Part shown: piece after piece, positions 799 to 64,000 of the stretch
Layout of the letters: each line of letters begins with the position of its first letter
How positions within the stretch are numbered: the first letter of the stretch is position 1
From: Protoeuglena noctilucae
Taxonomy: Eukaryota
Direction of reading: 5' to 3'
Assembly: GCA_958009085.1 (NCBI GenBank)
Contig: OY253669.1
Coordinates: 372,001 to 436,000 of the forward strand
Length of the DNA: 64,000 nt
Made by a program: the position numbers and the translations under genes
Notes under the pieces: model-generated
What the model saw: the letters and a program-made list of their open reading frames with translations, nothing else
The model's database searches: none
Told to the model about the DNA's origin: nothing

Positions 799-2478
799 AT
801 GGATGACGCGAAGGGCACGCCGCAACGGCGGGGCGAGGCGCGGGACTACGAGCGTGAGTCGTCTGCCCCGCACTGCCATGTGAATGTGCGATTGTGTGCC
901 AGCGAGCCGCGGTGGAAGTGGGGAAGCTGCGCCCGCAGGATTGAGCGGCATTGTCCAGCTTCTCTTCGCGGGAATCCTTCTCCTCCTTTCGATCAACGAC
1001 GTCCGCAAGCGGATACCCTGGGCCGCGCTTGGGATAACGAAGGAGGACCAATGGTGGCTCGAGCAGGCGCTGCACGTGCTACAGAAGTGCGCCATCACCC
1101 TGGTCGTCTCTGCGGGGAATAAGGACTACGTGCACTTTTGGCCGCTGCACCTCCTTCTGTCTTTCGTCGGCTCATCCGGGGGTAGCCACCTGGTCGCTTT
1201 CCTGGCTGGCGAGCCGTTCCGCATCCTCACGTGAGCGTGTGCCCCATCGCTGACCTGACCTAACGGCGGCGGATGGCTTGGTCAGCCTCCCACGGGGGCC
1301 TGGTCGAGACCCAGGCCCCGGCGCGCGTCTCTGCTGCAGGGATGGCTCCTCGGCCGGGTGGTTTCTGACCTCGTGGTATCTCGCGGCGTTCATGCCCGTC
1401 GGACACGTGGTGCGCGAGTGGCGGTTCGTTCGCACGCCCCTGGTCGCCATCTACAACTACGTGAGCCTCAAGGCCAGCGTCGACCGCGTCAACAAGACCG
1501 TGGAGACGCGGCCGGGTGAGCCAACGGCACCCGTGCTGACCTGGGCGCTGACTCATGACACAGCTGCAGCCAAGCAGTCAAGCCAGGAGCATTGCTGCGC
1601 CTCACTCCCGCAGGCGTGTGGTTCGCCGCGGTGCTCTTCGGCTCCCTGTCGTCGGGAGGGGGCGGGAGCCTCATGATGCTGGTCAAGTGGTTCTTTGGCC
1701 TCCACTCCCACCCCGGCCCGCTCTTCGTGCCACACTTCCAGGTCCGCCGCAGCATCCTCCTCACCCTGAGCTACCTAACCCTCTGCCACTGGCTCCCTAT
1801 CCCCCGCGGCCCGCGGTTCGCCACGCACGTGCGCGACGCGTTCGTGTTCCTCCTCGCGATGCACGCCGCGCTCGTCTCGCTCGGATTTGACGGCGACTTC
1901 ACGATCAAGGCGAGGCAGCCGCGCATGCACCCCCCGCGCGGATGGGGCTGGAGACCAGGCACACGATCCCACCCGCACCGCAGCGACTGGCGTCTGTGGC
2001 AACCCGCATGCAGGCGTGGCAGGCCATCTACTTCATCACGCGGATCCCGGACCCGGCGCTCGGCGCGGCAGCTTGGCCGTCCAAGCCGCCCTCGACGCAC
2101 GCCCACAAGGTCCCGGTGCCACGCAACGGGCTCGTGTGCGCCCACACGCTGGGCCATCCCGAGGCCGACCGCGTCTGGGAAGAGTTCTTGAGTCGGCACG
2201 TGGAGCGGTCGAAGGGCGATGCCTCGGGTGTGGGCGACGGGGCCGGGGGGTCCCGGAGGCGGAGCGGGGCAGCGGGGAACACCGGCGTGGGCAATGGGCA
2301 GAGCGGCACGCCTGGGGTTGGGGGAGGTGGGGCCCAGGGAAAGGACTTGCGGCGGAGGCAGGACAGCGACGACGCCATTCGTGGCGCCATTCACCGGATG
2401 ATCCAGGACGAGGCGATGGCTGAGGCGATGGTGGGGCAACGGCTGCGTCTCACGCCAGAGACGAAGAAAGCCAAGTGA
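799..2478 (+). CDS. Trimeric intracellular cation channel (TRIC/TMEM38-like), 5 exons
   Basis: The spliced multi-TM protein has two GG repeats (FVGSSGGSHLVAFLAGEPF; FGSLSSGGGGSL) and WFLTSWYLAAFMP, as in TRIC channels. The last intron (1910-2013) is GC-AG. Confidence 0.65.
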
Positions 2479-2619
2479 TGCAATGCGGGGTTTCAATGGG
2501 GTACCCGACATCTAGCCTTGGTAGGGCAGCCAGCTGGGCTGCATAGGCACGAGGATGAATCAGAGAAGTGTAACGCCCGATGCGGGCAAAAGGCGAGGCG
2601 TACAGTGACACCTTTGGGG

Positions 2620-4074: not shown

Positions 4075-5786
4075 ATGGCGGCGCGCTTCCGCGTGGGGGC
4101 GCCGCTGTGCGCGCTGCACTGCAGCACGTGCCTCCCCCCGCTGCGGCCGTGCCGCCCGCACAGCTCCTTGGCGCCAACGGTTAGGCGGCCTTGGGCCAAG
4201 AGAGCGACGTTCTTAGAGAAGGTGTTGGCATCGGCAAACGGCTCAGAGGCGCCTCCGTCGGATGGCGCAGCCCAGGCTCCCCGGTGCGGACAGGCCCTTG
4301 CGGCGCGCCCCCGCCGCGCTCGTCCTCTCGGCCGCCCTTCGACGCTCCGTGGCGCCGCCGTGTCTCACGCAGGCTCCTGGGCCTTCTCTCCGGCGTGCCC
4401 ATGGTCCACGACCCAGCTGACACCCTCAGCGGGGCCCGTCGCCGTGCCAACAAGGTCCCCGCGAACAAGATGATCAAGAACGCGAAGCAGCAGGCGTGCA
4501 GCTGGGCCGCCAAGTCGGTGGACGAGTTCGCGGTGCAGCTAACGGGGCCTCTCAAGACGTACGTGGGCAAGTTTCCACCCCCGCACCGCCTGCACCCGTT
4601 TGAGGCGGAGCTCCTGGACCTGAGCGTCGGCACGGAGCGCTACGTGCGGGCGGTGCAGAACGTGAACAACCTGCGCAAGTCCGTGGGCCAGACGGGGAAG
4701 GACTGGGCGGCGCGGGCGTCGCACGCGCCCAGCAAGAGGGATGCAGAGGCGGCACGGGAGGAGGCCTTCGACCTGCTGGCGTCCGTGTGGGAAAACGGAT
4801 GCCGGTCTGTCGAGAACCTCAAGGACATCGCCAGGGCAAGCGCACGCATGGCGGGGCGGCGGCTGGGGCATCGTGTGGAGTCCGCTTGTGACGCTGTGAG
4901 GTGGCATGGAACGTGTGAGGCGCCTCTTGCCCGCAGACCTTGCGCACGCTGCCGGTGGTGGACCTGGGGAGCCCGATTGTGGCGCTGGTCGGGGCGCCCA
5001 ACGTGGGCAAGAGCTCGCTCGTCAACCTGTTGTCGTCCGGCCGGCCTGAGGTGTGCAATTACCCCTTCACCACCCGGAGCATTAAGATGGGCCACTTCTA
5101 CGTCGGCAAGCGCCTCCACCAGGTCACAGGTGAGATGGCCGCTGTGCCATGCGTCCAAGCTACCGTCCGCCAAGGGCCTGTTTAAGCCGCAAGTATCGAG
5201 TCACAGCATCGAGCCACGCGCAGACACTCCGGGGCTGCTGGCGAGGGAGGACGAGGAGCGTAACAACATGGAGAAGCTGACGCTGGCGGTGCTCCACCGC
5301 CTCCCGAGCGTCCCCGTCCTCGTCATTGACGTCACGGAGGAGTGCGGCACGTCGGTGAGCAGGCGATCGCCCGGCTGCGTGACAGGGATCGTATACATGG
5401 CGAGCAGAAGCCACATGGGTGCTGGCGGGAGTCGGTGGCATGGCACATGTGCGAGTGCGACACGGCAGGCGCAATGGTGTCCGACGCTCCCCGATGGTGC
5501 GCAGATCGCCGACCAGCTGTTGATCCGGAGAGAACTGAGGGAGAGGCTGCCGGCGAAGGAGTGGATCGACGCCGTCTCTAAGGCGGACCTCCTGACCGCC
5601 GCGCACCGGAGGGTGGTCGCTGCCGAGGTGCCCGGCGCCATCCTCGTTTCCAGCGTGACGCAGCAGGGGGTCCCGGAGCTGCAGGCCGCCGTGGTGGAGG
5701 CGATCGCGAGGGAGGAGGCCCGGGCGGCCGCTGCGTTGGCCCAGAGCTCGGAGACCGACGCCGGCCTCGCCCCTACCCTGCCCTGA
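4075..5786 (+). CDS. NOG1-like (Obg family) GTP-binding protein, probably organelle-targeted
   Basis: LHPFEAELL helical domain, G1 [10 protein letters not shown]2 NYPFTT, G3 DTPG (split by an intron), G4 SKAD, and an N-terminal transit-like peptide. Intron 4836-4936 is GC-AG. Confidence 0.9.
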
Positions 5787-5950
5787 GGCCGTCCTGACTA
5801 GCCGCAACGGACAGCACGCTTTTGCCATTGGATGTCCAGTGCCATTCCTGCACACTTGATACCCAAAGAATCGGATAGGTCCAGGCCCCTCGGGGCCCAT
5901 CGTGACGGACGTGCCGTTGAACACGAGCGGCGGCGCAAGTCATGGCAGGG

Positions 5951-7353
5951 TTACTTGGTCTTCTTGCCAGCGGGGACCTTGGCGGGCTCCGAGAACGCCG
6001 CGGGGATCTTGGTGGCGCTTTGCCTGAGGAGGAACATGTACAGCCGCAGCCTGCAGGGAGGGGAGGAGCACATGGGTTGTGAAGCACGGTGCACGTGCAC
6101 ATCAAGCAGGCAGCCGGCCCGCATGCGGCCCTGGCACTCACCATAGGGGGAAGTAGACAACGAGGAGGACCTTGAGGAAGGTGGGGTAGTGGAAGCTGAC
6201 GTTGCCCATGTTCGGCAGAGAGATGGAGTTGATGTTCTTGTTGGACGCATAGGGGATGGCGCTGTAGAGGAGCCACATCTCCGCGAGCACGCCGATGGGA
6301 TACAGGGGGAGGAAGGCTGCGGCGATTGGCGGGGCACGGGTAGCTCCGGCGCGCAGGCTTGGCTGGCACAATGGCAGCCTGGTGCGTTGCGGTGCCCGTG
6401 CAGCGCACCTGTGTAGCGCACCAGCGTGACGATGGGAACCTCCAGGCGCACCGACAGCAGCGCCATGTACGGATACCGGCAGATCTCTGCGATGGCCCAC
6501 ACCGTGAGAAGGAGGCCCACGATGGGGGAGGTCTGCAGGCTCGCCACCTTGCCGATTACGAGGAAGAGCACGTGCGAGCGGCCCATCCACTGCATCATGG
6601 CGTTCAGGGGGCTGCCACGGACGAGGCCCAGTGCCGCGTGCGCCACCTCGAGGCCGGCGAAGAGCTGGCAGTAGGCGATCTGCGGTGCGGCGGGCGACGG
6701 CGCGTCGCGCGACGTCCCTGGCTCGCCAAAGCCAGCGCGTCGTCGACATTCAAACGGTCTTCGTCTCACCAGGGGGCCAGCCGTCGCGAAGACCTTGCTG
6801 AGACCCGGGGTCTTTGTGTTGAGGAAAGCGACAACCGGCTTGACGAGGGCGAGGAGGCCGCTGAGGACCTGCGCGAGGGTCGTATACTTGGCCTTCCTGC
6901 AAAGTATGGAGCGCGCGAGCATTTGCCACCAAGTCCAGCGCGGGGCGGGGCCGGGGCGGCCCCAGAACTCAAAAACGCTTGTTCACCTGGCCCATGCGAG
7001 GTGGGCCTCGAGCTCCTGAACGCCCTGGTCCGGAGGGATCGTAACCTTGGCATTCTTCGGAATGCTGGTGATCGCCTCCATGCAGAGGGCCAGGCAGGCG
7101 GCCCAGGCCATCGCCTGGACGACGCTGCAGGGAGAGAGACATTGTGGGCTCCTTTGCTACAGGCCGGTGGATCGGCGCGGGGATCCAGTAAGCACATCGC
7201 AGAAGCGTTCACGCGGTGCGTCCGCATAGAGGTCCGACCGTCCCCCAGGCCGCGGAACGCCGAACGCGGAGTCCCATGGCCCATCGGGACGTCCAGCCGC
7301 GCGCATCTGCGCGCTCGCCTGTACGCCAGCATGTGGACCTTTGCTGGCTTCAT
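5951..7353 (-). CDS. HACD: Very-long-chain 3-hydroxyacyl-CoA dehydratase (PTPLA/HACD/PAS2 family)
   Basis: LEVAHAALGLV, WAIAEICRYPY, RYTAFLPLYPIGVLAE and a C-terminal ER-retrieval signal KKTK. The first intron (7125-7318) is GC-AG. Confidence 0.9.
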
Positions 7354-7762
7354 GGTGCCCGCAGTAGCGTGCGATTGCCAAGCAAGGGCCAGTTCCAATC
7401 CACCCGTCCAGCGGCCACTACGGGCGACTTGCGATTCGATGAAGCCGACGATGGTGTCCTGAGGAACTTCTTACTCTACATGCCATAGCAGCACGCGGTG
7501 AATGTGTCCGCGGAAGACGATTTGGTGGAACTCTGGCGCGTCCCCGCCAGCTGCTCGTGACGTCCGGGTCGCTGACCGTGCCTTCCTCCTCGCGCCCAGG
7601 CCAGTTGCGTTGGAAGTCTGCTGCACGTTCGTTCCCTTGCTTTGCTTCAGCAACTGCGGGACAGCGAGTGCTGCGGGGCAGCCCAGAGTAAGCCCCACAC
7701 GGGGCCGGGGCCGTGGGCGCAGGGAAGGGCGATGGGCGGGCCGAAGTGAGTGGCGACGGACG

Positions 7763-8276
7763 ATGCCGTGAGCGTTTGTTTGGTTGCCGAGCTCGGACTC
7801 CTCAGACCGCGTGCCTCTCGGCCCACGCAGCAAGGAGAAGGTGCTGCGGTATGCTCGGAGGGCGGGGTTCTGGGGCCGGGGGCGGACGGTGTTTAAGGTG
7901 GCGCGGAAACGCATGTACAAGGCCCTAAGCAACTCCCAGTACGATCGGCACGCCAAGAGATGGGAGTTCCGGGCCAACTGGATCGAGGTGCGGGGGACGG
8001 CAGCCAGGACCCTCGGCGGCGCCCACGCTCTCTGGCGGGCTGCCGACCTGTAAATGCAGTTCTCCTGCTACCCTGGAAGCGCAGAGGATGAACGCGGCGG
8101 CGCGTCAGCACGGCCTGAGCTACTCCCGGTTCCAGTACGCCCTGCGGCTGGACAACGTGCAGCTGGACCGGAAGATTCTTGCCGACTTGGCCGTCACGGA
8201 GCCCTTCACCTTCCGGGCGCTCGTGACGCGCTGCAAGGACGTCTTGGCGGAGGTGGACAAGGGCCAGAAGAGGTGA
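7763..8276 (+). CDS. RPL20: Organellar (probably mitochondrial) ribosomal protein bL20
   Basis: MP|KEKVLRYARRAGFWGRGR...WIE|RMNAAARQHGLSYSRF...LDRKILADLAVTEPFTF. The predicted first coding exon is only 5 nt (ATGCC). Confidence 0.9.
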
Positions 8277-8551
8277 CGAGCTGCAAGCGTGCGTGCCCCA
8301 CGGCGCTGCGACCGTCTAGAAGACCTCGCCGTGCTGCTTTGAGGCAGCGCTGAGGCGCGCGCTTATCACGAGACGGGAAGGCATGCGCTCTCTTCGGCAC
8401 TTCACATGCAGGCGCAAGCAGCAGCGGCGGGAGGCGGAGGCGGTACGAGAAAAGCAAGTGTCGAGGCACCTCGAAAGCGCGGTGCAGCTGACGGAGAAGC
8501 AGCGAGAGTACATTCGTAACCTGGCTCTGGGGCGGGCATAGCGACCCATGT

Positions 8552-11312: not shown

Positions 11313-12187
11313 ATGCCGCTTCTCCGCCACTTGCCGCCAGGGCAGCTAGCGCGCTTCCGCGAGTTCACGGGCAGGTTTTTTCCGCATCGCACATCGCGCT
11401 GGCCCTTACGCTCGCACGTGCGGGCGGATAGCACGCCCGATGGAGCGCATGCGTCGACGTCCGCGCCCCAGGGGCCGAAGCCAGAGTTGCTGTGGGCCAA
11501 GCATTGCGCGGAGTGTGGGGGCAAGAACGCCCTGGTCGTGCCCAAAGGGGACAACCGGTGGCGTCACGTGTGCGAGACGTGCGGGGCCACGAGGTACTTC
11601 AACCCCGTGATGGTCGTCGGCTGCCTCGTCGAGCATGACGGCAAGGTCATGCTGTGCCGAAGGGCGATAGAGCCCTGCGTCGGCAGGTGGGGGCTGCCGG
11701 CAGGGTACCTGGAGTGGGGCGAAACGACGGCCGAGGGGGCGCAGCGGGAGGTCTGGGAGGAGGCGACGGCAAGGGTCCGGGTGCTGGCTCCGTTCGCCCA
11801 CCTGGACATCCCGGCAATCGGGCAGACGTACCTGCTGTTCCGGGCCGCGTTGGCCGCTCCCTTCACGTTCTCTGCGGGGCCCGAGTCTCAGGAAGTGGGG
11901 CTGTTTGGCCTGGACGAGCTGCCGTGGAATGACATTGCGTTCTCATCCACGTCCGTGGCCCTGAAGGCGAGGGGCTCTGGGTGAAGCCCTACTGCCATGG
12001 TGCCGTGCGCAAGTGGACGCGTGCCGGACTCCTTTGCGCCTTGTGCTGTGACCCGCAGTGGTACGTGGAGGACGCCCAGCGGGGCGATGAGTTCGGGCCA
12101 CACTACGGCGTCATCGACAAGCTGCCCAAAGCAGGGCCGAGCGGCGCGTTCCAGCTGCGGAAGCACGCGCTGCCGGCAGAACAGTGA
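11313..12187 (+). CDS. NUDT23: Nudix hydrolase with Zn-ribbon, NUDT23-like (plastid FAD/ADP-ribose pyrophosphatase type)
   Basis: CAECG...CETCG Zn ribbon, Nudix box GYLEWGETTAEGAQREVWEE, LPWNDIAFSS and a transit-like N-terminus. Single GC-AG intron 11967-12058. Confidence 0.9.
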
Positions 12188-12643: not shown

Positions 12644-14105
12644 TCAGATGAGGTCCCGCGGCTCGAATCGGTCCAGCTCGAATCGCTCGACAAACGCCTC
12701 GAAGATGCGGCTCTCTGGGCCGTGGAAGGCACGCTCTGCCCTGCGGGTCCCGACGTTGGAGAAGCAGCACGTCGCACGCGTCCCATAGCACCTGACCGCT
12801 CTCGACCTGCACGGTGGTCCCTCACCTGATGCTGATGGCCCCAAACTCCGTGTACGCAATCTCCTCCCAAGGGACGTCCCCGTGCGTCTGGTGGTCCTCT
12901 GTGGATCCCCGGGGCGCCCCCGGGCCCACCTCGCGGTCGTCCTCCGCCTGGCCGCCCCTCACATGCGGGCGGTCGTGCACCGGCCCCGACCCAGCCGCCC
13001 AGTCCATCGGCGCCGCGCTCGAGCCCTCAATGGCGCTCGCCTCCAAGTCGCCCCGTATGTACAGCCGCAGCCGGTCCTGCGCGACGCGTCACGGGGTGCG
13101 GTCGGCGGTGCACGGCCTGACCGCACGCAGCGTGGCGAGGCAACCCAACCCCAGCGCAGCCCGCTCGCCTTGCACGCGGCGTTGGCGGCGGATACGGTCG
13201 AGAAGACCCCCAGCACCTCGCTGCGCAGCGCGCGGACGGGGAAATCCCCGCCCTGGCATTCCTGCAGCACACTGAAGATGGCCACCCACAGGCCGTCGAG
13301 TGCGGGCGCGACCGACGCCGGCGTGCCTCCAATGTTGCGGCTGACGTCCTCCAAGTCATGCGGCGGCGGGCCCCCGACGCGATGAGGGCCCCCGTTGGGA
13401 CTGCGGCGCCGCTTGCCGTGGCGGGGCTGGCGGTAACTGCTCTGGGTGTGCGTGGCCGACAAGACCGGGAGGCGGTGCATGCCGGGCGTGGCGGGCAGCG
13501 GCGACCGGGCCTCCATCCCGTTTGCGACCTGCAAGGGCACAAAATGAGACCCTGTGGGTGGCTGTGCAGCCGGTACGACCCCATGGCTTGTGACCCGCAC
13601 CCCGCCGCACCGCACCTCTTCGATCGGCTCGCTGTTCTGACCTATCCCTGGGCGCCCAGCCTCCCCGACCATCACATCCTCGTCAGCGCGGCCCCCTGTC
13701 GCCGGCTGCTGCACCACCTCAAAAGGGTCCGCACGGCCCCTACCCATGCCCGCCGTCGTCTTGCCCGCGGAGGGGCTCTTGCCGATGCCCATCAGCGACA
13801 CCGCAGAAGGCACGCCCAGCGCTCCGCCGGAGTGAGCGGGGCGATGCTCCTGAGGGCCCGGAAAGTCCTGAGAGACCCTGCGCGGTCGTCGAACGTGGGA
13901 ACGGTGAGGGCCCTGCTGGGCATGGGCGCAGTATCGCCGGGCAGGGTGACGTGTGCTAAGGCACTCACCCAGAGGACGTCGGTTGCACGACGGCGCCGGA
14001 CCTGCGAGGAAGCGGGGTTCTCAGGGAGGTAAGAGCTCCCGTGCCCAGCTGCCTGAGCGAGCGCAGGGAGCTCGGCCGCGACATGAGCCTCCAGAGAGCA
14101 CTCAT
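12644..14105 (-). CDS. Hypothetical protein
   Basis: Exons splice in phase (…VLGVFSTVSAANAACK|DRLRLYIRG…; …FEAFVERFELDRFEPRDLI*). One GC-AG intron (13077-13168). The 5' structure is tentative. Confidence 0.45.
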
Positions 14106-16911: not shown

Positions 16912-17004
16912 CGATCACAGAAAACGTAGCAGGCACGGTCCACTTGAAACGGAAGCGGTGGGATGAGGCTAAGGCGCAGGGAAGGGGGGCGAGTCTAAAA
17001 ACGC

Positions 17005-48818: not shown

Positions 48819-49233
48819 ACCCGTGAGCGACGATCGAGGTGCCACGCTGCCCAGCGCGGCATCACCTTGTTCTCCGGTCGGTTCTGCAGCTCCCGCAGGA
48901 GCCTCAGAGCCTCCGGCTGCGCCATCGTTCGCCCCTTGTCAATCCCAGTCTCTGTGAGCCCTCCTTGCGCTGAACAGTGTGCATCAGGTGGTGGCCCGCG
49001 CACAGACAACAACCTAGATTGGGAGCAGCGCATGGCCGCACGTTGCCGACCATCGCTCTGGCTGGCAGCTGGCAGCTGGCGTTGACGCGCCTGATCGAAG
49101 CAAGCCAGCCTCGGAGACAAAGCCAATCGCGCCGCCGCGCAGTCGGAGCAAGCTCCTGAGCGTTGGTGGTGGAATGTGCTCAGATGTCCGGTTCCTGTTG
49201 CGGCTGAGGTATGCAGATGTGAGGACATCTGCG
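48819..49233. repeat. Direct repeat copy 2
   Basis: Matches copy 1 and carries an extra ~20-nt segment near 49100-49128. Confidence 0.95.
48866..48925 (-). other. Duplicate ArfGAP first exon (possible alternative first exon)
   Basis: MAQPEALRLLRELQNRPENK plus a GTGATG donor, identical to 46554-46613. No local copy of exon 2 follows. Confidence 0.8.
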
Positions 49234-50552: not shown

Positions 50553-51462
50553 CTCGTCGCCTCTGCAGCAACCGGCGTCTGGCTCGCCCGCCATTGCATC
50601 ACCTTGTGCCCCTTTGCCCACTCGAAGCCAAGCCGCCAATAGACGCGGCGCTCCTCTGGCCTGCACCTCGCCAAACGAGGACAATGTGTCAAATGCAACG
50701 CGACTAAGCACGGAGCAGCAATGGCAACATCGCCCGCCACCCTTGCCTCGCAAACACGACGAACGTCTCTGGACCCCTCTTGCCCCATCGCCTGCGCGAC
50801 TTCAACAGCCTGCGCACCAGCGCCTCCGATGCGACCTCGGCGTCCTCGGCTGCTTGCGAGTCCACCGTCACGTCCAGCACCAGCGCAGAAAACACCCCGT
50901 CTGCGAGAGCGACCGGTCTAGTGTCATCCAGCTGTGCCTCGCGTATGCCGGCGACGGAGCGCGCCAGGATTTCACCTGAAACGCAGCGCGCGAAGCCGAG
51001 CAACACGCCATCGACCTCGATGGCCGCGACCGCGTAGCTGTGGCGCAGAGCCACGGCCCATTTGCGCGGGTCGTGCATCGCCCCACTCGCGTCCTTCCCC
51101 GCACGAGCCATCAGCTCTGCCACTGCCTCCGCAGACACGCCATCGAGCCCCAGCCACCGAACTGCCCGGGCCGGGCCGCCCGCGCGTCGAATAAGGTCAG
51201 GAGCCCTCTTCAAGCCACAACGTATGCCGGAAGAGAGCAACCTGCCAGACGTCGAGGCGGCGCTCGCGGCGAATTCGCGCATGCGGGCCGGTGGAGCACG
51301 TGTGAAGTGTGCACTGCTGGCTCGACGAACAGCGGCAGGCTTGCAACGGAATGCGGCATCACCAGCGTTTTTGGACAAACGCATCACAACTGAGGATGTC
51401 GACATCAGGCGCCGGTGGGCAGCTGGGGGGTAACCCTGACCCATCAGGGAAGTCGTTTCCAT
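50549..51462 (-). CDS. GNAT acetyltransferase, plastid NSI/SNAT-like
   Basis: KWAVALRHSY, LLGFARCVS|DGVFSALVLDVTVD, FAR|PEERRVYWRLGF, and a transit-like N-terminus. Confidence 0.75.
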
Positions 51463-51630
51463 GGCACCCAGGTCGATGCTGCTCGTGATGCAGCACGAAG
51501 TGCAGCCTCCAGTCGCTCACCTCTACACCCCAGCTCGCATCTTAACCCAGTAGCGCCTTTCCTGCGAGCGTTTCCTGGTGGAGTTGTTACGCGCCGGCGA
51601 CCTGGCCCAGCACGCAGGTGCAGGAGATCC

Positions 51631-52641
51631 ATGGGCCCCGTGAAGCAGTGGGTTCCGCTGGAATCCAATCCGGAGGTGCTGAACGAGTACGCTTCGCAGC
51701 TGGGCCTCAACATTCAGGAGTTGGCGTTCTGCGACGTCTGGGGACTCGATGACGAGCTCCTCGATGCGGTTCCCAAGCCCGTGTGCGCGGTGCTGATGCT
51801 TTATCCCATCACAGGCGAGCGCGGTGGACGCAGGCGGGTCTCCAACCGTTCCCTGCGCACCCGTGACCATTTCGTGAGCCGCGGAGTCCCTCCGCGATAT
51901 CTTTGCAGAGAAGTCGGAGAAGGCCATGGAGGACGAGGAGAAGCGCCTTGCTCAGAGCGGCCAGGAGGTGTCGTCGCGCGTGTTCTACATGCGCCAGACC
52001 ATCAGCAACGCGTGCGGGACCATCGCGCTTCTCCACGCCGTGGGGAATAACATGGACAAGACGGCTGTCCTCGACGACAGCTTCTTTAAGGAGTTCTTCG
52101 GCCGCACGAAGGGCATGACGCCCGCGGAGATCGGCGCGTACTTGGAGAACCCGCCCGCAGACGGCCCAAACATCGAGGTGGCCCACTCGGCGGCTGCATC
52201 CCTGGGCCAGACGGCCCCGCCCCAGCCGGGAGAGGTCAACTTGCACTTCGTCACGTTCGTCACCGTCGACGGGAACCTCTACGGTGAGCTTGGCACCCCT
52301 CGTCTGCAACTGTCGCCGTGGCATGGACACCCGAGGAGCGACGGTGCCACTGCACTGCCTCTGCAGAGCTGGACGGGCGCAAGAAGTCGCCGGTGAACCA
52401 CGGCCCTTCGACGCCGGAGACTCTGCTGAACGATGCAGGCAAGGCCGCGGCTGCGTGGCGAATCTGTGAGAAGTGGGGAGTGCGACCAGCCATGCCATGC
52501 CGTAGAGCTCGCCCGCCCGCGGCATGGGTCATTCCGTTGCTCTTGTCCGCAGTCCGCGTGGTGAAGCGCTTCATCCAGGAGAGCAACAGCATCGAGTTCA
52601 ACCTCATGGCATTCACGAAGCCAGGCACGTGGAACGTTTGA
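51631..52641 (+). CDS. UCH3: Ubiquitin C-terminal hydrolase (UCHL3-like)
   Basis: WVPLESNPE, QTISNACGTIALLH, LHFVTF, YELDGRK. Two GC-AG introns (51815-51908, 52439-52552). Confidence 0.95.
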
Positions 52642-52698
52642 AACTGGCGGAGCGGCAGGGGGCGGGGGGGCGTGGGAGGCGCTATATCGCCAAACGCG

Positions 52699-55668
52699 TC
52701 ACTCGTCGCCTGGCATGAGCTCGCTGGGAGGCATTTTGGCCACCATCGACAGGAGCGGCGCAGAGCTCGAGTTCTCGACCACAATCACGTGGATGTCCTG
52801 CGGGGCAGGCCGGGACAAGACGAATGCGAAACCGGCTGCTGTTTGAAGAGGCGGAGGGCCGCTGCGAGGACGACACGGGCGGCACAACAGGCTGCCACCT
52901 GTCAAGCGCTTTGGGTGCCCACGCATGCACAGCCGGTCGCAGCAGGCATGCGCGAGCAAAGCACTGTCCCGCACCCCCGCTCACCTCCGGCGGCGCCGCG
53001 GGGACGAGCGCTTTGACGGAGAGCTCGAAGGTGTAGAGCGTGCTGGGGACGAGCAGCGGCACGGGCACGACGGGCGGGTCGACTTCGTACGTCTCCCGGC
53101 TGTAGTTGATCACCATGAGAAGGCCGCGCACGCACTTGTCGCCCGTGTTCTGGAGCTGCAGCGTGACGAGGAAGGTCGGACCCAGGCCCATCACGTTGGC
53201 ATTCATCCGGAGGCTCGCCCCCGAGCCGTAAGACACGGCGCCCTTGCCGTCGCTCAGCACTTTGATGAACGTGCGGGCCGCTGCGCGACACGAAAGGGTC
53301 AGCAGTCGTTTTGCCCCTCACAGCTGCACGCGCTGGCCGCGCTGGAGCCAAAGGTCGCGACGACCCCACACCTGCATGCGGATCATGCCAAGCAGGCTAT
53401 GCTCGTCTCACCCGTCAGTCGCATCTTGCACAGATCCCTCTGAAACAGCCGGTGCATGTCGATGGCCGCCTCCCGCTCCCTCTGCGGCAACAACCACGCG
53501 GCACGCTTTGAACGCCCCCCAGCGTTACCCGCAACGGGGCTCCCAGTCCGCGCCATCACACAGTGCCCTCACCTGCGTCAGCTCGACGAATATCTTGGTC
53601 TTCTTGGGGATCTCGAGCGGCTTGACGTTCTCCGCGGTCGTGTGCACGTGGCCGTTGGCCAGGGGGTTGTGGCGGGGAATGAACTTGATGTCGAGGCCCC
53701 CGTTCGCAAACACAGACACCAGGGTGCTGTCCTCTCGGCCGTAGCGGCCAAACGCCATGGCGACCACCGGGCCGGGCATCTCGACTGCGTGTGCACCACG
53801 GGCCGCCACAGAAGTGAGGCTTCTCTGGGCCCAGTCCCAGTGCAGCAATGATCATAGCACAGACAGCAGCAAGTGCTCGCATGTACCAGCCACTGTTGCA
53901 GCGCGCCCACTCGCCTTCCCCGACGAGGTCCGTCTTGCGGTAGACGCGGATGGTCTTATCGGCGCACGACGCGGCAATGCCAACCTCTGCCATGTGCCGC
54001 ACCAGCCCACCGCCGGGCATGATGGGGATTCCCGTGATGGCCAGGATGGGCGACCCCGTGTAAATGCTGTAGCGCTTGGTGCCCGTGAAGGTGTAACACG
54101 ATATAGACTCGTCCATGCAAGCCACGACGAAGCTGTCCCTGCGGTGGGGTATGGAGAGCCATGCATGTCCAGCCCAACGCCGCCGGCATCGCACAGCCCT
54201 GCCCCGCGATCCCCGCCACGCAGGCAGCAGGCCCGTCGCAAGGTGGAAGTGCGCCAGCGGCCGCTGCACGGCGCCGTTTGGGGCGCATGGCACACGCATT
54301 GCCGCCTGGGCACGGACCTCAGCACGACGAGGCCCACGGCGGGGGCGGGTAGGGGAATCTTGAGGGAGTTCTCGAGCTTGGGGCCCGTGAGGACGTGGGC
54401 ACGGCCGTTGCGGGAGACGAAGACGACGACGGGACCGGTGGAGAGGGACCCGGCGGACCCGATGAAGGCGGGAGCCACCCCGACAGACCGGTCAATGACG
54501 ACGTCCGCCCCCGTTTTCTCGAGCACCAGCACCCGGCCGTCCTCGGTCGCCACCACCAGGTTGGACTCGCCGGCGACGTCGGGCCGGTCGGACATGACAT
54601 CGGTCAGCGCCGCGACTGCGAAGGGAACAACGACGATGGCTTGCGACACTGCCCCTGTCGATGCGGCCGGTGCGCGATCGCGAGCTGGTCGCGGGGGTTA
54701 CCTGAGGCGCTGGGGAAGCGCAGTGGCAGGCCCGACGACTTCTCGATGTACTCCTGTTGCGCCGCCTCTCCTTCCAACGCCACCAGCTCTAGCGTCTTCT
54801 GTGTCACCCGCACTGCCGCCGCCAGCTCCCCCAGGGTCTTCACCCCATCTTGCAACGACACCTGGCCCGACTCCAGAGCCTCCCACGCTGCGGATAAGCA
54901 CAAAGGGGCCGGCCATCGTCACAACGACCTCCTTGCCGCGCCACCCTCGCCCCATGCCCCGCCCCCTCTTGCCCCCTCGCCTGACTTCTCCTCTTGGCTG
55001 ACGTCAGGCACGGGCACAGTGAAGCGGAAGAATGGCCGCATCCTCCGATAGATGTACACGTTGGGCCCGATGGCCACCGCCAGGTTCGGGAGACGCCGCC
55101 CGCCTATGGACGACATCCCCGGCTCGGACACCGAGAAGGTCGCAAGCGCTGCGGAGAGGAATGCGCCCTCGGTGAATGCCGGGCCCGGTTCCGGCGCAGG
55201 GAATGCCGCGCCGATTGAGCCAGGCATGGGCGCGCTCATGCAGCCTGGCTTAGCTGGGCGAAGCTACCCCGCACCGCGCTGCTGGACTATACGGTCGCTG
55301 TGGTGGCAACGCGCATTGAGTTGCTTGTCTGGAACGAGCGTGCCGCGTGCCTCACCTGATGGGACGTCGCTGAGCGGGTTCTCGGCCGCCATCATAGTCC
55401 CCCGAAACACCTTCAGCTTCCTCGACACCGTCGCGACGACAAGGCGGCTGTCATTGTCCCCATACAGGTCACACATCGTGAACATCGTGCTGTATGTGTC
55501 TGCACGGGGGAGACACGTCCGACCACCTCAACACGGCGGGCGATGTGCGCGCCCAGAGAGGCCCACTGGCGGATGGGAGCCAGCGAACGCACCTAAACCA
55601 GTCATGTTGTCTGAGAAGGCATCCAGGAAAAGCTTCTGCTTGCCCACGGCGTTGACAGTGTTCACCAT
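52699..55668 (-). CDS. BBS1: Bardet-Biedl syndrome 1 protein (BBSome core)
   Basis: DLYGDNDSRLVVA...KLKVFRGT, VYIYRRMRPFFRF, FGRYGREDSTL, IPKKTKIFVELTQ|RERE, MHRLFQRDL, GLGPTF. Confidence 0.93.
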
Positions 55669-56576
55669 CTTGCCCGCCTTCTGCCACCGCGCCGCTGGCG
55701 TGATGACGCCCCCGGGCACGACCCCTGCGATAAGTGACGCATATGTCAGCGTGTCGTGCTACTGCGTGCCTCGCTACGCGTCCCCAGCGAGCTCTCCGGC
55801 CGTGCATGTCAGCGCGTGTGCCTCCCCCGCGCGCCCACCTTGCGGGGTCGCCGCCACCTCCCCTTCTGCGCCCGCCATTGTCCACGCAACCGCGCGACCG
55901 GCGCACTAGGCAGCGACCGGGGCGCGGCCTCCCCTTCCGCACGTGGGGCTTGACCCTGACGACGATGCCTGGGCCAGCGCGCAAGCCATCCGAGGAGCAA
56001 GGCTAAGGCCTAGCTTCGATTAATCGACCGATACCAAGACAGGGGCCTTGTACGTCTTCCCTTTGCCAAAACAAGGAGTGAAAAGTGCAGAGCAGACACG
56101 GATGGCCTTTCTTGCAAGACGCAAAGCTGGTCTCGGGGGAGGATGACACGGTAATGTTGCAGGAGACGCCGGGGGCTTGGGACAGACGACCGTGGGCGGC
56201 ACGTCGTCAGAACTGTGGCGTGCGTTGCAAGTTCGGGGAATCACAGGGCCTTTGCGGCGCCGAAACCCTGGCAAGTCTGTACATGCCTGCGTGTCCGGTC
56301 GACGGCGCCTCGCGGTTGCGGGTCAAGCCGGCTGCGGCAAGCAAAGTTGTGTCGCGCCCTGCTCAGCGCGTTGGGAGCGCTTCTGGTCTTGAGCGTTTGT
56401 CGTACACTTATGGGATCCAAGAGCTGCCCTCCATGAGGGTCAGCGGTGGCGGGCCTGCCCCCACGGCGCGCTGAGCCCCCAGCGTGAGGTGCGGACGTTC
56501 CCAGCGCGCATTGGGTCTTTGCCGCTCGTCCGTAGCTTGACAACGAAATCGTTTGGTTCCAGCAGCAACGGGAGCC

Positions 56577-57039
56577 ATGGCGCAGGAGCGGAGGGTCACG
56601 TTTGCGCGTGGTCCCTTTGCGACCGAGGATGGCCACCCGCCGCACGAGGGGCTGACCGCACAGGCGAAGGAGCACTGGTACCCAAAGATCAACGCTTCGC
56701 CTGAGCCCATCACGGTGAGACTGGCGGCCGCTGCCTTTCGCCACAAGGCCTCGTCCTGGCCGCGTCCTTCGCACCGTCTTGCTGCGTCTTCCGCAGTCTC
56801 GACACATCACGTCCCTGGCCAAGTTTCTCGGCCTGCCCGAGTACCAGGCGACGATCGACAAGCTGAAGCGCTTTGTTGGCGACCTGCCACCGCTTCAGCG
56901 CCCTGACCCGGCAGCGTTGGCCAGCCAGGCCACGTCGCCCCCACCCACTCCCACCATGGACACTCCATTGGCGCGAGGGAAGCGGAAGCGGGAGGAGGCC
57001 GGTCCGGGCCGTGCAGCAACACCTTCTGATGGTGGTTGA
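56577..57039 (+). CDS. Small hypothetical protein with a possible NLS
   Basis: Two exons in phase (…PEPIT|SRHITSLAKFLGLPEY…); GKRKR near the C-terminus. Confidence 0.5.
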
Positions 57040-57322
57040 CGCCGCATTCAATGCCATGTGTGGCGCGTAGTCCGCTAGAGGCACGTCATGCTACGCTCCC
57101 TACGCTGCGCTGCAGGCGGGCAAGCGGCTCTGGCATGCGCCCACGTCAACCCGCCCGCTGGCAAGCGCTGCGAGAGGGCAAGAGACGGGGGCAGCAGCCA
57201 CGTGGCCACGTGAGACTCCCCAGGGCGTTTGCCCGACAGCACGCGGGGTCCGTGCAATGCGCCCTCGATGACTGCAATATCCTTCCCGTTCTTGCCCAGC
57301 GACATCCAGCTTGCTCAGCTCT

Positions 57323-58130
57323 TCACGTGGCCATCACCACGTCGTTTGCACCCGGCCCCGCTCGCTTGCTTTTTGGGCCGTTGTCCGGGGCCCCCATCCC
57401 AGCTGCCGCCTCCGCGTCCCGCTGGTTGTGCGGCCGATCGCCTAGCAGCTCCTTCACGCGCTTCTTATGCGGCTTGGTCTTCTCGTGCTTCACCAGGGTG
57501 TCATTGTCCACAAAGTACCTGAAAGTAGAACAAAGCCTTTCGTTAGGGTATCAAGCAAGCTGCACGACAGCCCCCGGCCCCCTGCACGGCGCGAAGGTCA
57601 CCGTGCACACGCCACGCAGTAGAACTTCCCCTCGCCGGGAACGTCCTCGTCCAACTCTGCCCTGCGACGAGGTCAGAACACGGCGACTCCGCCTCCTCCC
57701 CCACGCTCCGCGCGGCTGCGAGAGTACACCGAACCCCGAGTTCTCGCATGCATAGCGCACCTATCCGTCGTCCCCATGGGGCCGTATTTCCCAGCGACGA
57801 CGTTGTACTCCTTCCGAACGTCCTCCCAGACCTGATCGACGTGACGCGCCTCAAACGCCTTGCGCGCCCGGGTCTTGTGTATCACCGACCGCGACTTCTT
57901 CCCCGTCCCTACGCGTAACGAGCCACGGGCGGGGCAGTTGAGGAATGCGTCGCACGCACGGGACCCCTTTGCGCAGAGTGCTGCTGGAGGGCTCTGCCGA
58001 CGCGCGTGGCCATGGAATAAGCCGCAGCTTCGCGAGAGCCGTACACGACACCGCATCATTCGGCGGGGTACCTGAACAGCTCCACTCGCCCCTCACCTGA
58101 ACCGGTCCCACGCCGGCCTTTCTTCCCCAT
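57323..58130 (-). CDS. BUD20: Zinc finger protein ZNF593/Bud20 (60S biogenesis)
   Basis: [30 protein letters not shown]...[14 protein letters not shown]. Confidence 0.92.
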
Positions 58131-58753
58131 CCCGCCACAATCGCCGGGAGCGAGCCCGCGGCGGAGGCCCAGTCAGCTGCGGACGGTAACCTGGCTACCG
58201 CTCTAGCCGTCAAGTTCCTGGCAGGCGTGGCGTGTTGATGCGGCGCGGGGAAGCGTGCAAAGATGAGTGTGACCTAGGGCACGGGCGAGCAGGGCTTGGG
58301 GCGCAGGAGAAGGTGACCAGCGTATTTCGCGAGTCGCGAACTGCGTATCCGTGGCGCGCGGGCACTGAAGCAAGGCCCGACGCTGCGCCGCCAGGGAGTC
58401 CTGCGCCTGCAGCACAGCATGAGTGGACGCGTCTGCGATTGCACATCCGCTGGCGGCCACGGCAAAGACTTCCTCTCCATCATCTCCTGCCGTCCTCTAG
58501 CAAAGCGGTGGCCGTGGATTGCGGCGCGCCGAGGGACTTGGGTGCAGCCTAGTGGGCATTGCCGCGATCCTGCTTGAGGAGGACATTTAGCTGCAAGCTC
58601 GGACTGCGACGCCATGCAGTGACGCCCGTGTAGTTGCTGGGCGTGCTGTGCGGCCTCGGTTAGCGCCTCTGCATCGTCCGCACGCCATCGCTTGCCCCTC
58701 CGTGCGTAGAGAGGGGCACCGGCTGGATCTCTCCGCCTGTTTGTCTGGACAGG

Positions 58754-61700
58754 ATGACTCTACCGGGGGTGCCTCTGCCATGGGCGTTCGACGGCGGGCT
58801 GGGGCCGGATGGCGCTGAAAGGTGGGGCGTCGCTCAAGCGCGGGTGGCCGCCGTGATCCACCCCGGGGCGGGAAGAATTGCCCTCTGCGTCTGCGCTCGG
58901 AATCCCTAGTCAACGCGCTAGGCATCGCGTCAGGATCGCGGGCACGCGAGCCCCGCGTCGCATTCGATCAGTTGCAGGCTTCCCGGAGAGCTGCAGCCGA
59001 GCCCGAGCGCCCGCCCGGCGACGACGGTCGCTCAGGTGGCGCGTGGCGACCTTGAGCTGCGGCGGTACGCGGCGGCCAACGACGGGCTGGATCTCTACGA
59101 GCGCGTGAAGCACATTCGCGCCTCCCCGGCGTCTCCGCCGCTCTCCGCGGGCCCCTCGCAGCTGCGCCTGCTGCCCGGAGGCGTCCTTCCGCTGCCCCAA
59201 GCCGTAGCGGTGCGGTACCAGCAGGGAGCGCGGGCGTGCTTCTGCGGGCTTCTTCCAGAAATCCACCACGCTTGGGCCAGCATCGACTCGAGCCTCTTCC
59301 TTTGGCGCTACGACACGCGCGGCGCCGTGCCGGTGGAGTACGCTGCCGAACAACACCACATCTCGTGAGACGCCGCGCCCGCCCGCCGCAGCACGCTGTC
59401 TTGATGCTCCCAGGCCGCCGCAAGACGCCGCCTTGCCGTGCGCCCCCGCAGCGCCGTGGGTCTTGTCCGCCCCAAGCCGGGCGTCCTCGTCGCGTCTATC
59501 GAGCATCTGCTCGTCGTCTGCACGACCCGGGAGGTCGCTCTGCTGGGCGTCCACTGGCCGTCACGGTCAGGCAACATCGCGCTCAACCCCCTGCCTCTCT
59601 TCAGCGTCCCCACCGAGACGCCCGCCTGCTGCGTCGCATCCACGCCGTCCGGGCGCATCTTCCTGGGCAGCGCCGATGGCCTGGTGCACGAGGTGAGGCC
59701 TAGGCCGGCCACACGGCATGCTGTACCGGCGGCACTGCGGCAGAGGTGGTGCCTGGCGTCGTCTCATCATCAACAATCAAGACTGTACCGAGCGGCCTTC
59801 GCGAGACGCGGCCGGGTGCGCTTGCCGCCCTTGCATTGCCCGCTTCCATCTCTTGACAAGAGACCGTCGTTCTCGCACAGGTCAAGTATGGTGCGTCCGG
59901 ATGGCGCGCCCAGAGGTGCTTCCTGGTCCGCATTCCCCCGGGCCTGTCCAAGTGGGTCCCGAACGTGGTGCGGCAGGTCGTCCTGGGCGCTCTGCCGTTC
60001 CTGGCGGGTGCTCCCCGGGAGGTGGAGCAGCTGGTGGTGGACGAGGCAGGCACGACCCTGGTGGCACGCACGCGCACGGGCGTCGCCGTCTTCCACATCT
60101 CCGGCACCGACGGGGCCACGCGGTGAGCGAGAGCAGGCGCAGCGCAGGGCACCTGGTCTTCTCGGTTGCATGTTGTCGCGCGACGCTCCCCATTGCTCCC
60201 GCACTGCTTGAGCACATTTGCGTCCCTGTCGAGCCACCCTGTCTTATCTCACGTTCGCATCGTCTAATCTCACGTTCGCGGTTCGGCCTCTCCCACAGCG
60301 TCGGGGAGATGCCCGAGCTTGTCAAGCGGTGTCGGGAGGAGCGGTCTCTGCAAAAGGACCTCGGCTCTTCCCCGAGCGAAGAGCTGATCTACGCAGCTCC
60401 CATCCCGGACTACGAGACGGACCGCCTCGGCCTCCTGGTGGTCACCAAGGACGGCCTGCGGGTGCTTTTGTCCACATCCAAGCGCAGCGGGGCTCCCACC
60501 GACCTCCACCTGCGTGCCGTGCTGCCCCCGCTGCCCGCTGGGCCCCAGGGGGCGGCGGCGCGGCCCACGTGCGCCGCGGCGTACCAGCACGCGGCGCTCG
60601 CCGTGTGCACGGTCCCCGGAAACGGCGAGGCGGGGACGTGCGACGTGGCGGCCTCCTTCCAGCGACAGCAGCCGGTTACGGAGGCCCCGGGGAGCTTCGC
60701 GGTGCAAGGCATTCCTGGCACCACCGCCACCTCTGCCGCCCTGCCGCCCGGGGTGGTGCTCAAGCCGGGGGTTGTCACCCTCTCGACCCCGCGCAAGGTA
60801 CGTCCTCGTGCGCATGACTTGCCAGGCACATGGAACGGCGGCCACGGCATGCTCGGAGTCGAAACTCTGACGCCGATGTTTGCACTCTCCTGCTCACCCA
60901 TTCTGTCAAGCAGCTGCGCTAAGGCTGCATTGTTGCACGAATTGGCACCTCACCTGCACCTCGCCCCAGGCGCCACCATAGCGCAGCCCGCCCGCGCGTC
61001 CTCGCTCCCCGCAGGCCCCCGTGGAGCAGCTGGCGTTTTTGGCACATGACGGCCTCCCCGGGCAGGCGGTGGTGGCCGTGGGGGCCCCTCGAGACCCTGA
61101 GCTGGTGCAGGCGCTGCAAGGCGCCAAGCGTGAGGCCCAGGCGGCGCTCCTGGGGGAACTCGTCGCGCAGTTCGCCCTTCCCCGGCAGCGATTCGTGGTC
61201 ATGACCGACCAGGGCATCGCCCAGGTGCGCCACGCTGCTGTTAACGGGCTACAGAGCGCTACGGAGGGTCAGCCAAATTCGCGCCAGCTTGCGAGCAACT
61301 GTGGGCGATCCCTTCCATTCGGACTCGTTGTTGCTCCGCAGATCGAGCGGCGTTGGCCCGTGGATGTCCTGGAGGATATCCTGGCCCTTCCGCACCCGTC
61401 CCTTGAGGCGTCCTCGCCTTTGGGGCAGTTCCTCGAGGCTTACGGGGCGCAGGAGACCGCCGCGATGGCCTACTTCCTGCTCAGTCGAGGCACGGCGCCC
61501 GCGGGGGCGCAGCAGGCCGCCAGGGACCTCTTGCGGGCCCCGCAACTGACGCGCGTCGTGGCGCACGCGTCCAGCTCCGGTGCCGACGCCGCGGCCTCGG
61601 GGCCCCCGCCGCGCGCGCTGGTCTTCTCGCCGGCGCCCGGGGCCGCCCGCGCCGCCGCGGCGCGCCAGGGCAGCTTGATCCCGGGGCAGTCGCCGGGTTG

Positions 61701-64000
61701 GGACATCACGCGGCGCGTGGTCAGCTTGCTGCCGACGCCCCTGCGCGGGCGGACCGCAGGCGAGGCGGTTAAGACCCCGCCCGCGGGGGTGCTGCAGTGG
61801 CATCCGCCCCTCGTGTGGCCCGTGCTGGGCTATGGCAACGGGGCAGGGACCTTACGGGCGGAGTGGGATGTGTCAACGGCGACGGCGGCGGGCCCGTCCG
61901 CATGTCGCGAGGGCCTGTGCCTGCTGCTCTCGCGCGCGCTCCTGCTGGCGTGGGACGTGCCCATGTTCGCTGCGGCGAAGTCTGCGTCTGCGGCACGCGC
62001 GTCGGTGGCGGGGGGCACCCCCCGGGGTACGGGCAAGGGGACGGTGGTGGTGAAGCCGCCCGTGCCCCTCGCGATGCTGGCGGAGGCGCGCGACCGCCTG
62101 CACCGCCTGCACGCCGTGCTGGCGCAGAGGTGCGTGGGGCAGGGCCAGAGAGATGGGCACCGGCCCTGCCACCTTGGGTGCAAGCCATGCGGAGAGTCAT
62201 GAATGCCTGGGTTTTGTTTCATAAATCCCATGATCGCCAAGATGGCTCCGTCGCCTGTCCATTGCTCTTTTCTGACCCCACCGCAGGGAGTCTCCGACGT
62301 TCTGGAAGGTGCAGAGCCTGCTGCGAATGGATGGGGACGGCGCGCATTTGGGAAAACGCAAGGGATCTCCGGGGATGTTGTTTGGTGGGGCGGAGGACGC
62401 GCTGGGGCGGCAGACGCCGGGACTGCCTGGGTCAGCCTACAAGCGCATGCGTGGGGCGGACGGCGAGCGTGTGGGGTTGGGCCGGGGGGGCGAGGAAGAT
62501 GCGGAGGCGGTTGAGGAAGAGGCCATGGCGTCTTTGCAGGCGCTCGTGGCCAGGGCGGCCCAGGTAAGGGGCGCGAGTGCCTCAGTTGGAGGTACCATGG
62601 GTGCCTAGTTGGTGGTGGTGGGCAGTGGCCACAGCAGCGTCCCACTGCTCCCCATGACGCCGTCTCATGCCTCTATGCCCACCCACTGTCTCTCCCAGGT
62701 CCTCTCCCTGCTCATCCTGGCATCCCGCCAGCGTCTGAGCCCCATGGAGGCACCCACCGTGGATCTGCTCACGCGTTCCACCCTTCGCGCTTTGGTGGTG
62801 GAGGAGGCGGGGGAGCAGGCGCTGCGGGCCGTCATCCACGCCATGCAGCCGCAGGAGGCGGACGATGCACTGCGACAGGCGCTCGGGGCCGAGTGCCCGT
62901 CCTTCTTCAAGGCGAGTGGGCGTGGCGAGCGGTTGTGCTGCGCTGGCCGGCGTGCGGAGAGAGTGGCAGCCGCAGCCCCCTCGCCGCTGGACGAAGCACA
63001 CGGTGGGCATTTCGGGGCTGAGCGGAAAGTAAGTATGTCAATGCCCATGTGAGAGCCGCGCGGGTGCCTGGCGTGGCTGTGTTTAGCACCTGCATGCGTT
63101 GGCACCGACAGTGCGCAGACTCACTGCAGCATCTGCACCCGAGCGCAGGAAGAGGATCAGAAGGCGCTTCTGGCGACCAAGGCCCTGGCGGAGGCGGATC
63201 GCATGGCAGAGGGGCCGGACAAGCAAGACCGGGCCGCAGCTGCACTGGCGCTGCTCCTGGAGCTGCCGGGCTCGGTGGACCTGGGCGCGGCCGTGCCGAT
63301 CCTGGCGCGCGTCGGGATGATCGACGGATGCGTGCAGCTGGTCGCGAGGCGAGGGATGCTTTGAGATGCTGGACTACTATTGTAGATGTGACGCAACGTG
63401 GGCCTCTGCAGGAGACCAGTGCGCTCAGCTGCGAGTGCCCTGGCCCCGCCCCGCTCGCAGGGCTGCGCATCTTTCCGACCCGGAGCAGCTCGCGGGCCGC
63501 CTGGGCCCGGAGGGAGAGGCGGCGCGGGCCCGCCGCCACCAGTCCTACCGCCACCTGCTGTCGGCCGTGGTGGCGCTCGGCAAGCCGGCCATCGCCAAGC
63601 TCCTCCGGTCGCAAGCCGCGGCCCAGGATCCCTGGCTCGCGGACTTTACGTTCGAGTACCTCGCCGCGGCACGCCAGGGCGACGTGCTGCTGGCCCAGGC
63701 CCCCGCCTCGCGACTGGAGGACTTCTTCCTTCGTGCCGGCGGCATCGACGCGGACCTGACCAGGCCGCTCCCGGCGCTGCTGCCGGCGCAGGAGCAGTGC
63801 TTGCTCCTGCTCTCCGACCTGTACGTCCGGCAGGGGCGGTCCGAGCGGGCGGCGCGTGTGCTCGAGGCGCTGGCGAGGAGGGACGGCCTGGGCATCGCAG
63901 ACCGGAGGGCGCTGCTGGGCCGCGCGAGGTCCGCGGCGGAGTCTGCGGGGGTTCCTAGCGGAGAGATCGCTAACTTGCTAGAAGTGCTGGACCTGCAGGA
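58754..64000 (+). CDS. NUP155: Nucleoporin Nup155/Nup170 (runs off the right edge)
   Basis: GLLPEIHHAWASIDSSLFLWRY, VGLVRPKPGV, GRIFLGSADG, CPSFFK|EED. Two GC-AG introns (62912-63148, 63349-63460). Confidence 0.92.

Follow-up and report, generated by a model that had tools for sequence, protein, structure and literature searches.

The window analysed here is a stretch of 64,000 nucleotides (nt) of Protoeuglena noctilucae (assembly GCA_958009085.1, contig OY253669.1, positions 372,001-436,000, forward strand), in which about one fifth of the introns begin with GC instead of GT and end with AG (GC-AG introns). It contains genes for plastocyanin, sucrose-6-phosphate phosphatase, a plant-type ferredoxin, the ciliary protein BBS1, a NOG1-like GTPase and a PTPLA/HACD protein, together with those for a NUDIX protein, a kinase-PP2C fusion, a ubiquitin C-terminal hydrolase (UCH) and a NUP155-like nucleoporin. 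Because plastocyanin, sucrose-6-phosphate phosphatase and BBS1 are encoded in it, the window is assigned to a green alga that retains cilium genes. The G+C content, for the window only, is 67.35%, within the range of at least ~65% that marks the class of GC-AG-rich algae.

An earlier note on this DNA had claimed about 18 introns with a GC donor, nearly all of them in the context AG/GC(A/G)AG, where the slash stands for the exon-intron boundary. We indeed found GC...AG termini on one strand, the one stated in that note, in all 18 intervals, 13 on the forward (+) and five on the reverse (-) strand (those starting at 7125, 13077, 26278, 36355 and 50661). Exonic AG precedes the donor in 17 of the 18 introns, the exception being 4836 (GG), and the intron begins with GC(A/G)AG in 17 of the 18, the exception being 20268 (GCGCG). 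Among GT dinucleotides lying in frame at most 90 nt from one of these donors, the highest donor-matrix score was 1.8, and the GC donors themselves scored 2.1-6.8.

RNA junctions and the frequency of GC donors

Contigs of three marine metatranscriptome runs (X1, X2 and X3) and of a DNA run (X10) were aligned to positions 44001-64000 of the window, a region into which 7 of the 18 listed introns fall. The runs X1-X3 contain 49-61% of the words sampled from a 10-kb piece of the window, and 19 of 19, 23 of 27 and 18 of 19 of their RNA contigs, respectively, match the window at an identity of at least 99%. The RNA counts below refer to the 14 joints listed out of 41 on this region. Each of these has a single canonical reading within the alignment ambiguity, ten as GT-AG and four as GC-AG, and each was present in X1, X2 and X3 and in no contig of X10. 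The four GC-AG joints agree to the base with coordinates given in the earlier note, which had asked for RNA junction mapping and had named the use of nearby GT donors as the outcome that would overturn its proposal; at the four listed introns visible in RNA this was not so, and the joints were exactly GC-AG. The 14 listed joints do not include the introns 50661-50746, 62912-63148 and 63349-63460. Introns with GC...AG ends are thus removed from mRNA at four RNA joints, and two further junctions are fixed by Pfam coordinates. GC-AG introns make up 29% of the listed RNA joints (4/14; exact 95% confidence interval 8-58%), a proportion that a true rate of 1% would produce with P = 9e-6.

The frequency in the whole window was estimated with a two-strand Viterbi gene parser, self-trained on the window, that combines a 3-periodic third-order coding model with donor and acceptor matrices ignoring +1/+2 and AG. 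With GT and GC admitted on equal terms, the parse yielded 134 introns in 28 genes (~4 per gene), 36 of them with a GC donor. It recovered 13 of the 14 listed RNA joints and 16 of the 18 listed introns, missing 24488 and 36355-36475. When only GT was admitted, 4 of the 13 recovered RNA joints were lost, namely the GC-AG ones, and the summed score fell from 4126 to 3646. Because forbidding GC cost these joints, annotation of GC-rich algae must allow GC donors; gene finders restricted to GT will get roughly every fifth intron of this genome wrong.

When all four GN donors were admitted, the parse called 97 GT, 32 GC, 8 GG and 6 GA introns. With the GG and GA calls taken as noise per available site, the expected number of false calls is ~13 for GC and 5 for GT, which leaves ~19 GC introns among ~111, or 17%. 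Decoy runs with GT+GG and GT+GA were also tried as a gauge of false positives and were dropped, as the decoys step in for the disallowed GC donors without any change of acceptor. At donor-matrix scores of at least 4.5, the parse used 24 of 35 GT sites, 15 of 33 GC sites, 1 of 24 GG sites and 1 of 15 GA sites (GC versus GG and GA combined, p = 6e-5). The motif AGGCRAG is not enriched in the window (33 sites versus 27.4 +/- 5.1 in dinucleotide shuffles), and AGGTRAG is (27 sites versus 10.0 +/- 3.6). Since AGGCRAG is not enriched, the motif by itself is no evidence; the evidence is its placement.

Taken together, these results confirm that about one fifth of the introns in the window are GC-AG, a share far above 1-2%. 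The 15-20% estimated in the earlier note is matched by the decoy-corrected parse and lies within the confidence interval of the RNA proportion. Its premise that such introns amount to about 1% in most eukaryotes also agrees with the literature, where a survey of 61 species gives 1.3% of 2.46 million introns (Iwata & Gotoh 2011, PMC3033335).

Homology across junctions and the intron inventory

The statement that homology fixes several of the junctions held for the ferredoxin intron but not for 32763-32855 in the sucrose-6-phosphate phosphatase gene, where the hidden Markov model (HMM) match to S6PP begins downstream. In the ferredoxin gene, translation upstream of the intron ends in ...CSSCAGK, and the Fer2 HMM match 7-46 extends exactly to the final residue encoded upstream of 24488, with the match 47-77 beginning on the first residue after 24619. 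The parse picks 24483 instead of 24488 here, a choice contradicted by the homology. In the BBS1 gene, the HMM match to the upstream exon stops at position 114, and the following exon matches from position 117, starting with its first residue.

For the intron 4836-4936 of the NOG1-like gene, the NOG1_N HMM match (4-150 of 160) ends at residue 153 of the 154 residues of the upstream exon. Searched against the PDB, this exon gave no match at the default threshold and, at E <= 10, only a weak one (E 0.27), to human NOG1 chain 6lss_4, in which the last aligned pair is query residue 151 (of 154) with chain residue 153. The downstream exon matches the same chain from residue 159 at query residue 3, with the numbering contiguous across the junction. 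Upstream of 26278-26370, the Pkinase HMM runs to 259 of 263 at residue 100 of 101, and no usable in-frame GT is present. The predicted gene around this intron (25171-27463, -) fuses a protein kinase (exons 26371-27463) to a PP2C phosphatase (exons 25171-26277).

The NOG1-like gene has a second position of note. The NOG1 HMM ends at 32 (~nt 5360), and from nt 5505 it matches again, starting at 31; the frame is open between them (5361-5504, +). The parse excises 5400-5504 (+) as a GC-AG intron (atg/GCGAGC), which leaves 13 unmatched residues; the donor chosen by the parse is therefore a candidate.

Table 1. GC-AG introns of the window, followed by the GT-AG introns seen among the listed RNA joints. 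Donors are written with exon bases in lower case before the slash.
Intron	Strand	Donor	Gene	Support and remarks
1910-2013	+	aag/GCGAGG	membrane protein	parse only; best in-frame GT 1.8 vs 6.3
4836-4936	+	agg/GCAAGC	NOG1-like GTPase	weaker homology; parse; exon end GG
7125-7318	-	cag/GCGAGC	PTPLA/HACD, near 5' end	parse only; GT alternatives <= -5.8
11967-12058	+	aag/GCGAGG	NUDIX, after the domain	candidate; parse only
13077-13168	-	aag/GCGAGC		parse only; GT alternatives <= 1.5
20268-20357	+	cag/GCGCGG	coiled-coil	candidate; parse only; without RAG
24488-24619	+	aag/GCGAGT	plant-type ferredoxin	homology
26278-26370	-	cag/GCAAGC	between kinase and PP2C parts of one gene	parse; Pkinase HMM to residue 100 of 101 upstream
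31479-31580	-	aag/GCGAGG		further candidate, absent from earlier list; both parses
32763-32855	+	cag/GCGAGC	sucrose-6-phosphate phosphatase, N-terminal part	parse only
36355-36475	-	cag/GCAAGG	RING-variant	candidate; upstream exon coding (RINGv match); not recovered by parse
37963-38044	+	cag/GCGAGG		parse only; GT alternatives <= -4.0
39406-39512	+	cag/GCGAGG		further candidate, absent from earlier list; both parses
47374-47545	+	cag/GCAAGA	short-chain dehydrogenase-like	RNA, phase 0; X1-X3, not X10
50040-50123	+	gag/GCAAGC		RNA; X1-X3, not X10
50661-50746	-	gag/GCAAGG	small gene	candidate; parse only
51815-51908	+	cag/GCGAGC	UCH	RNA; Peptidase_C12 match on next exon
52439-52552	+	cag/GCAAGG	UCH	RNA; X1-X3, not X10
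54888-54980	-	cag/GCGAGG	BBS1	homology; both parses; missed by earlier note
62912-63148	+	aag/GCGAGT	NUP155-like	parse only
63349-63460	+	gag/GCGAGG	NUP155-like	parse; X1 RNA contig piece starts at 63459, beside acceptor
45639-45729	-	cag/GTGATG	ArfGAP	RNA, GT-AG comparator
47711-47823	+	cag/GTGCCA		RNA, GT-AG comparator
48100-48189	+	ctg/GTGAGG		RNA, GT-AG comparator
49808-49896	+	ccg/GTGAGT		RNA, GT-AG comparator
50327-50404	+	gag/GTGTGT		RNA, GT-AG comparator
52284-52366	+	acg/GTGAGC	UCH	RNA, GT-AG comparator
56489-56565	+	gag/GTGCGG		RNA, GT-AG comparator; sole listed RNA joint missed by parse
56715-56796	+	acg/GTGAGA		RNA, GT-AG comparator
57519-57601	-	acg/GTGACC		RNA, GT-AG comparator
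57662-57760	-	tag/GTGCGC		RNA, GT-AG comparator

Several of the tabulated introns call for comment. The gene around 1910-2013 had been labelled TRIC in the earlier note, and neither flanking exon has a Pfam match. At 11967-12058 the open frame ends just past 11981, and a short unspliced C-terminus is a possible alternative. No in-frame GT lies within 90 nt of the donor of 20268-20357. In the RING-variant gene, a possible 14-nt exon (36341-36354, -) lies between the candidate GC-AG intron 36355-36475 and a GT-AG intron at 36247-36340; this predicted exon would bring ...CLARWQLQ in frame with ...EEKHCRFC. In the UCH gene, exon 51909-52283 carries an additional GAG codon after 52231 in all three RNA runs at full depth, which is found neither in X10 nor in the window and is probably a strain or population indel within a GAGAG run.

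Donor context and the origin of the GC donors

GC donors matched the U1 consensus outside the second intron base (+2) better than GT donors, both in the RNA set and in the parse. The full AG/GYRAG context was present in all four GC donors and in none of the ten GT donors seen in RNA (Fisher p = 0.001), and in 18 of 36 GC donors versus 19 of 98 GT donors of the parse (p = 0.0009). The share of donors with A at +3 in the parse was 28% for strong GC donors (n = 25) versus 7% for GT donors (n = 98). GC donors elsewhere are known to carry a stronger consensus as a rule. Among parse donors with the full context the share of GC is 49% (18/37), near the C/(C+T) of 0.62 in predicted intron interiors, and among the remaining parse donors it is 18 of 97, mostly low-scoring and at noise level. 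G+C amounts to 85% at third codon positions and to 65% in predicted intron interiors. In the predicted sense exons of the parse, AGGTRAG occurs at 0 of its 27 sites and AGGCRAG at 11 of its 33. Because AGGCRAG stands unused in predicted exons 11 times and AGGTRAG never, T at +2 still strongly matters.

It is most likely that the GC-AG introns of the window are ordinary U2-type spliceosomal introns, with C in place of T at the second base, that result from G+C pressure at strong donors under a standard spliceosome. The G+C pressure of the genome would turn T at +2 into C, and selection would tolerate this C only where a donor has U1 pairing to spare. At strong donors T and C would approach the background C/T ratio, and weaker donors would remain GT; all of this presupposes a standard spliceosome. 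The confinement of C at +2 to fully U1-complementary donors, seen here within one window, supports compositional drift over a changed spliceosome. The earlier note had offered both causes. Its suggestion of GC pressure acting on otherwise strong donors agrees with the context of the RNA-verified donors, but the relaxed recognition of +2 that it also proposed is not supported by the sequence, given the 11 unused exonic AGGCRAG sites versus none for AGGTRAG.

The latter possibility deserves weighing in its strongest form, namely that an altered reader of the 5' splice site (the U1 5' end, the U6 ACAGAGA box, U1-C or Prp8) accepts C at +2 more readily, leading to an accumulation of GC-AG introns. 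The share of these introns lies far over the 61-species mean of 1.3%, and base modification or proteins of the U1 small nuclear ribonucleoprotein (snRNP) are proposed in the same survey as possible causes of GC-AG abundance (PMC3033335). A quantitative shift in tolerance would be compatible with all data of the window. However, GC donors here require the full AG/GCRAG context and GT donors do not, the exonic sites just described are passed over when they carry C, and the U1 5' ends of Aureococcus and of both Micromonas are reported to be canonical (PMC3033335). We therefore regard an altered reader as unlikely.

It is less probable still that modelling artefacts account for most of the listed GC-AG introns, with AGGCRAG frequent by chance at 67% GC and the real donors lying elsewhere or no intron being present. 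The near-chance number of AGGCRAG sites would fit such an explanation, and the decoy run shows that the parse invents donors where an intron is needed; moreover, the parse failed to recover 36355-36475, and for 11967-12058 an unspliced reading exists. Against this, all four listed introns seen among the listed RNA joints are exact, the ferredoxin junction is fixed to the residue, strong-context GC sites are used at 15 of 33 versus 2 of 39 for GG and GA sites of equal context, and the parse loses RNA joints as well as score when GC is forbidden. For five to six introns the artefact explanation is already refuted.

A special class of introns, either U12-type or an introner or transposon family with a GC donor, was also considered. 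Micromonas pusilla is known for introner elements, and as a GC-AG-rich alga it makes such an origin conceivable. However, neither a U12-type donor (RTATCC) nor the branch motif TCCTTRAY near the 3' end was found in any of 19 GC introns examined, and an all-against-all BLAST of the 134 predicted introns revealed no sequence families, only three short chance-level pairs and one antisense overlap. The lengths are also similar, with medians of 104 nt for strong GC introns and 96.5 nt for GT introns. Within the window this explanation is already refuted, and we give it practically no weight. The scan of the window gave no Rfam match. The branch-site consensus is weak, CTRAY being present 8-50 nt from the 3' end in only 11 of the 98 predicted GT introns and 2 of the 25 predicted strong GC introns, and acceptors are mostly (C/T)GCAG window-wide.

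Several points weigh against the preferred explanation by G+C pressure under a standard spliceosome. G+C alone is insufficient, since Micromonas RCC299, at 64% GC, is reported to have only 2.7% GC-AG introns (PMC3033335), an observation that also speaks for an altered reader. We infer the cause itself, GC pressure with a standard spliceosome, from the pattern and from precedent. It is the parse, not RNA, that places the 11 unspliced AGGCRAG sites in exons. The parse is noisy, its 8 GG and 6 GA 'introns' implying that ~13 of the 32 GC calls could be false, and AGGCRAG occurs in near its chance number, so that motifs are easily picked by eye. Direct RNA support is at hand for four GC-AG junctions only and homology for two to three; the rest come from the window-trained parse.

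Comparison with other GC-rich algae

Abundant GC-AG introns in GC-rich algae have been in print since 2011, and the window is a further case of this published class. In the 61-species survey, GC-AG introns account for 39.6% of the total in Aureococcus, for 22.2% in Micromonas pusilla and for 7.7% in Chlorella sp. (PMC3033335). In Emiliania huxleyi, 56% of 241 manually mapped junctions are given as GC-AG, 13 of which were checked by reverse transcription-polymerase chain reaction, and the authors proposed the GC content of the genome (65%) as the cause (Feldmesser et al. 2014, PMC4028052). For pelagophytes, a 2024 preprint gives 14-17% in Aureococcus and ~14% in Pelagomonas calceolata and ascribes these values to GC content (10.1101/2024.10.30.620910). 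Full-text literature searches on GC-AG introns in green algae found no further green-algal case rich in them, and the main text of a pedinophyte genome preprint (YPF701, 70% GC, 28 Mb, 7,940 genes) contains no mention of splicing.

The closest parallel is Micromonas pusilla, by the survey's figures (22.2% GC-AG, 65.9% G+C; PMC3033335) likewise a compact, GC-rich marine green alga in which GC-AG introns reach about one fifth. Unlike Micromonas, the window has dense introns (~4 per gene) without repeat families, and the best named matches of its BRAP2 exon are core Chlorophyta. Aureococcus anophagefferens and Pelagomonas calceolata share the high G+C content and a GC-AG proportion in the tens of percent, but they are stramenopiles described as having fewer than one intron per gene (10.1101/2024.10.30.620910), whereas the window comes from an intron-rich green alga. 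Emiliania huxleyi resembles it in having a GC-rich genome and RNA-verified GC donors (PMC4028052); it is a haptophyte whose introns mostly have GC donors, whereas GT prevails here (10 of the 14 listed RNA joints). The termini are the same as those of ordinary animal and plant GC-AG introns, and the frequency is more than 10-fold higher here (PMC3033335).

The novelty of the present case is modest. It adds an intron-rich green alga to the published GC-AG-rich algae, with GC-AG introns that are unique sequences and not introner copies and with a context dependence visible within 64 kb, and it opens no new question. There is a slim chance that the lineage reached its 17-29% GC-AG on its own, in unique introns of an intron-rich genome, with T and C near neutral at fully U1-paired donors, a tolerance perhaps aided by an alteration of the U1 snRNP or Prp8 peculiar to the lineage. 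If so, it would allow one to measure, in a natural setting, how much pairing makes the identity of +2 irrelevant.

The affinity of the alga was examined with a BRAP2 exon of 404 residues. The only match at 100% was its own open reading frame, and the next was a metagenome protein at 60%. Among the 120 matches listed, named core Chlorophyta reached at most 54% identity and no Mamiellophyceae were present. The BRAP2 search therefore points to a lineage without a close named relative in the searched collection. Judged by published genome features, Chloropicon primus (57.5% GC, 0.5 intron per gene) and Pseudoscourfieldia marina (57% GC, few introns) do not match the window, and for the pedinophyte YPF701 a match is possible. 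A search of the UCH exon against metagenome contigs, for DNA of relatives in which GT/GC switches could be seen, found no locus. The nearest BRAP2 relative is encoded on metagenome contig L001 (7.4 kb, 75% G+C), at 60% identity to the window exon, as a single unbroken frame of 670 codons (4213-6222), which is uninformative on donors; the contig either represents an intron-poor relative or derives from a transcript. Among the remaining genes of the window, that for L20, a bacterial-type ribosomal protein (7732-8541, +), is a nuclear gene that contains introns, and its product is presumably organellar.

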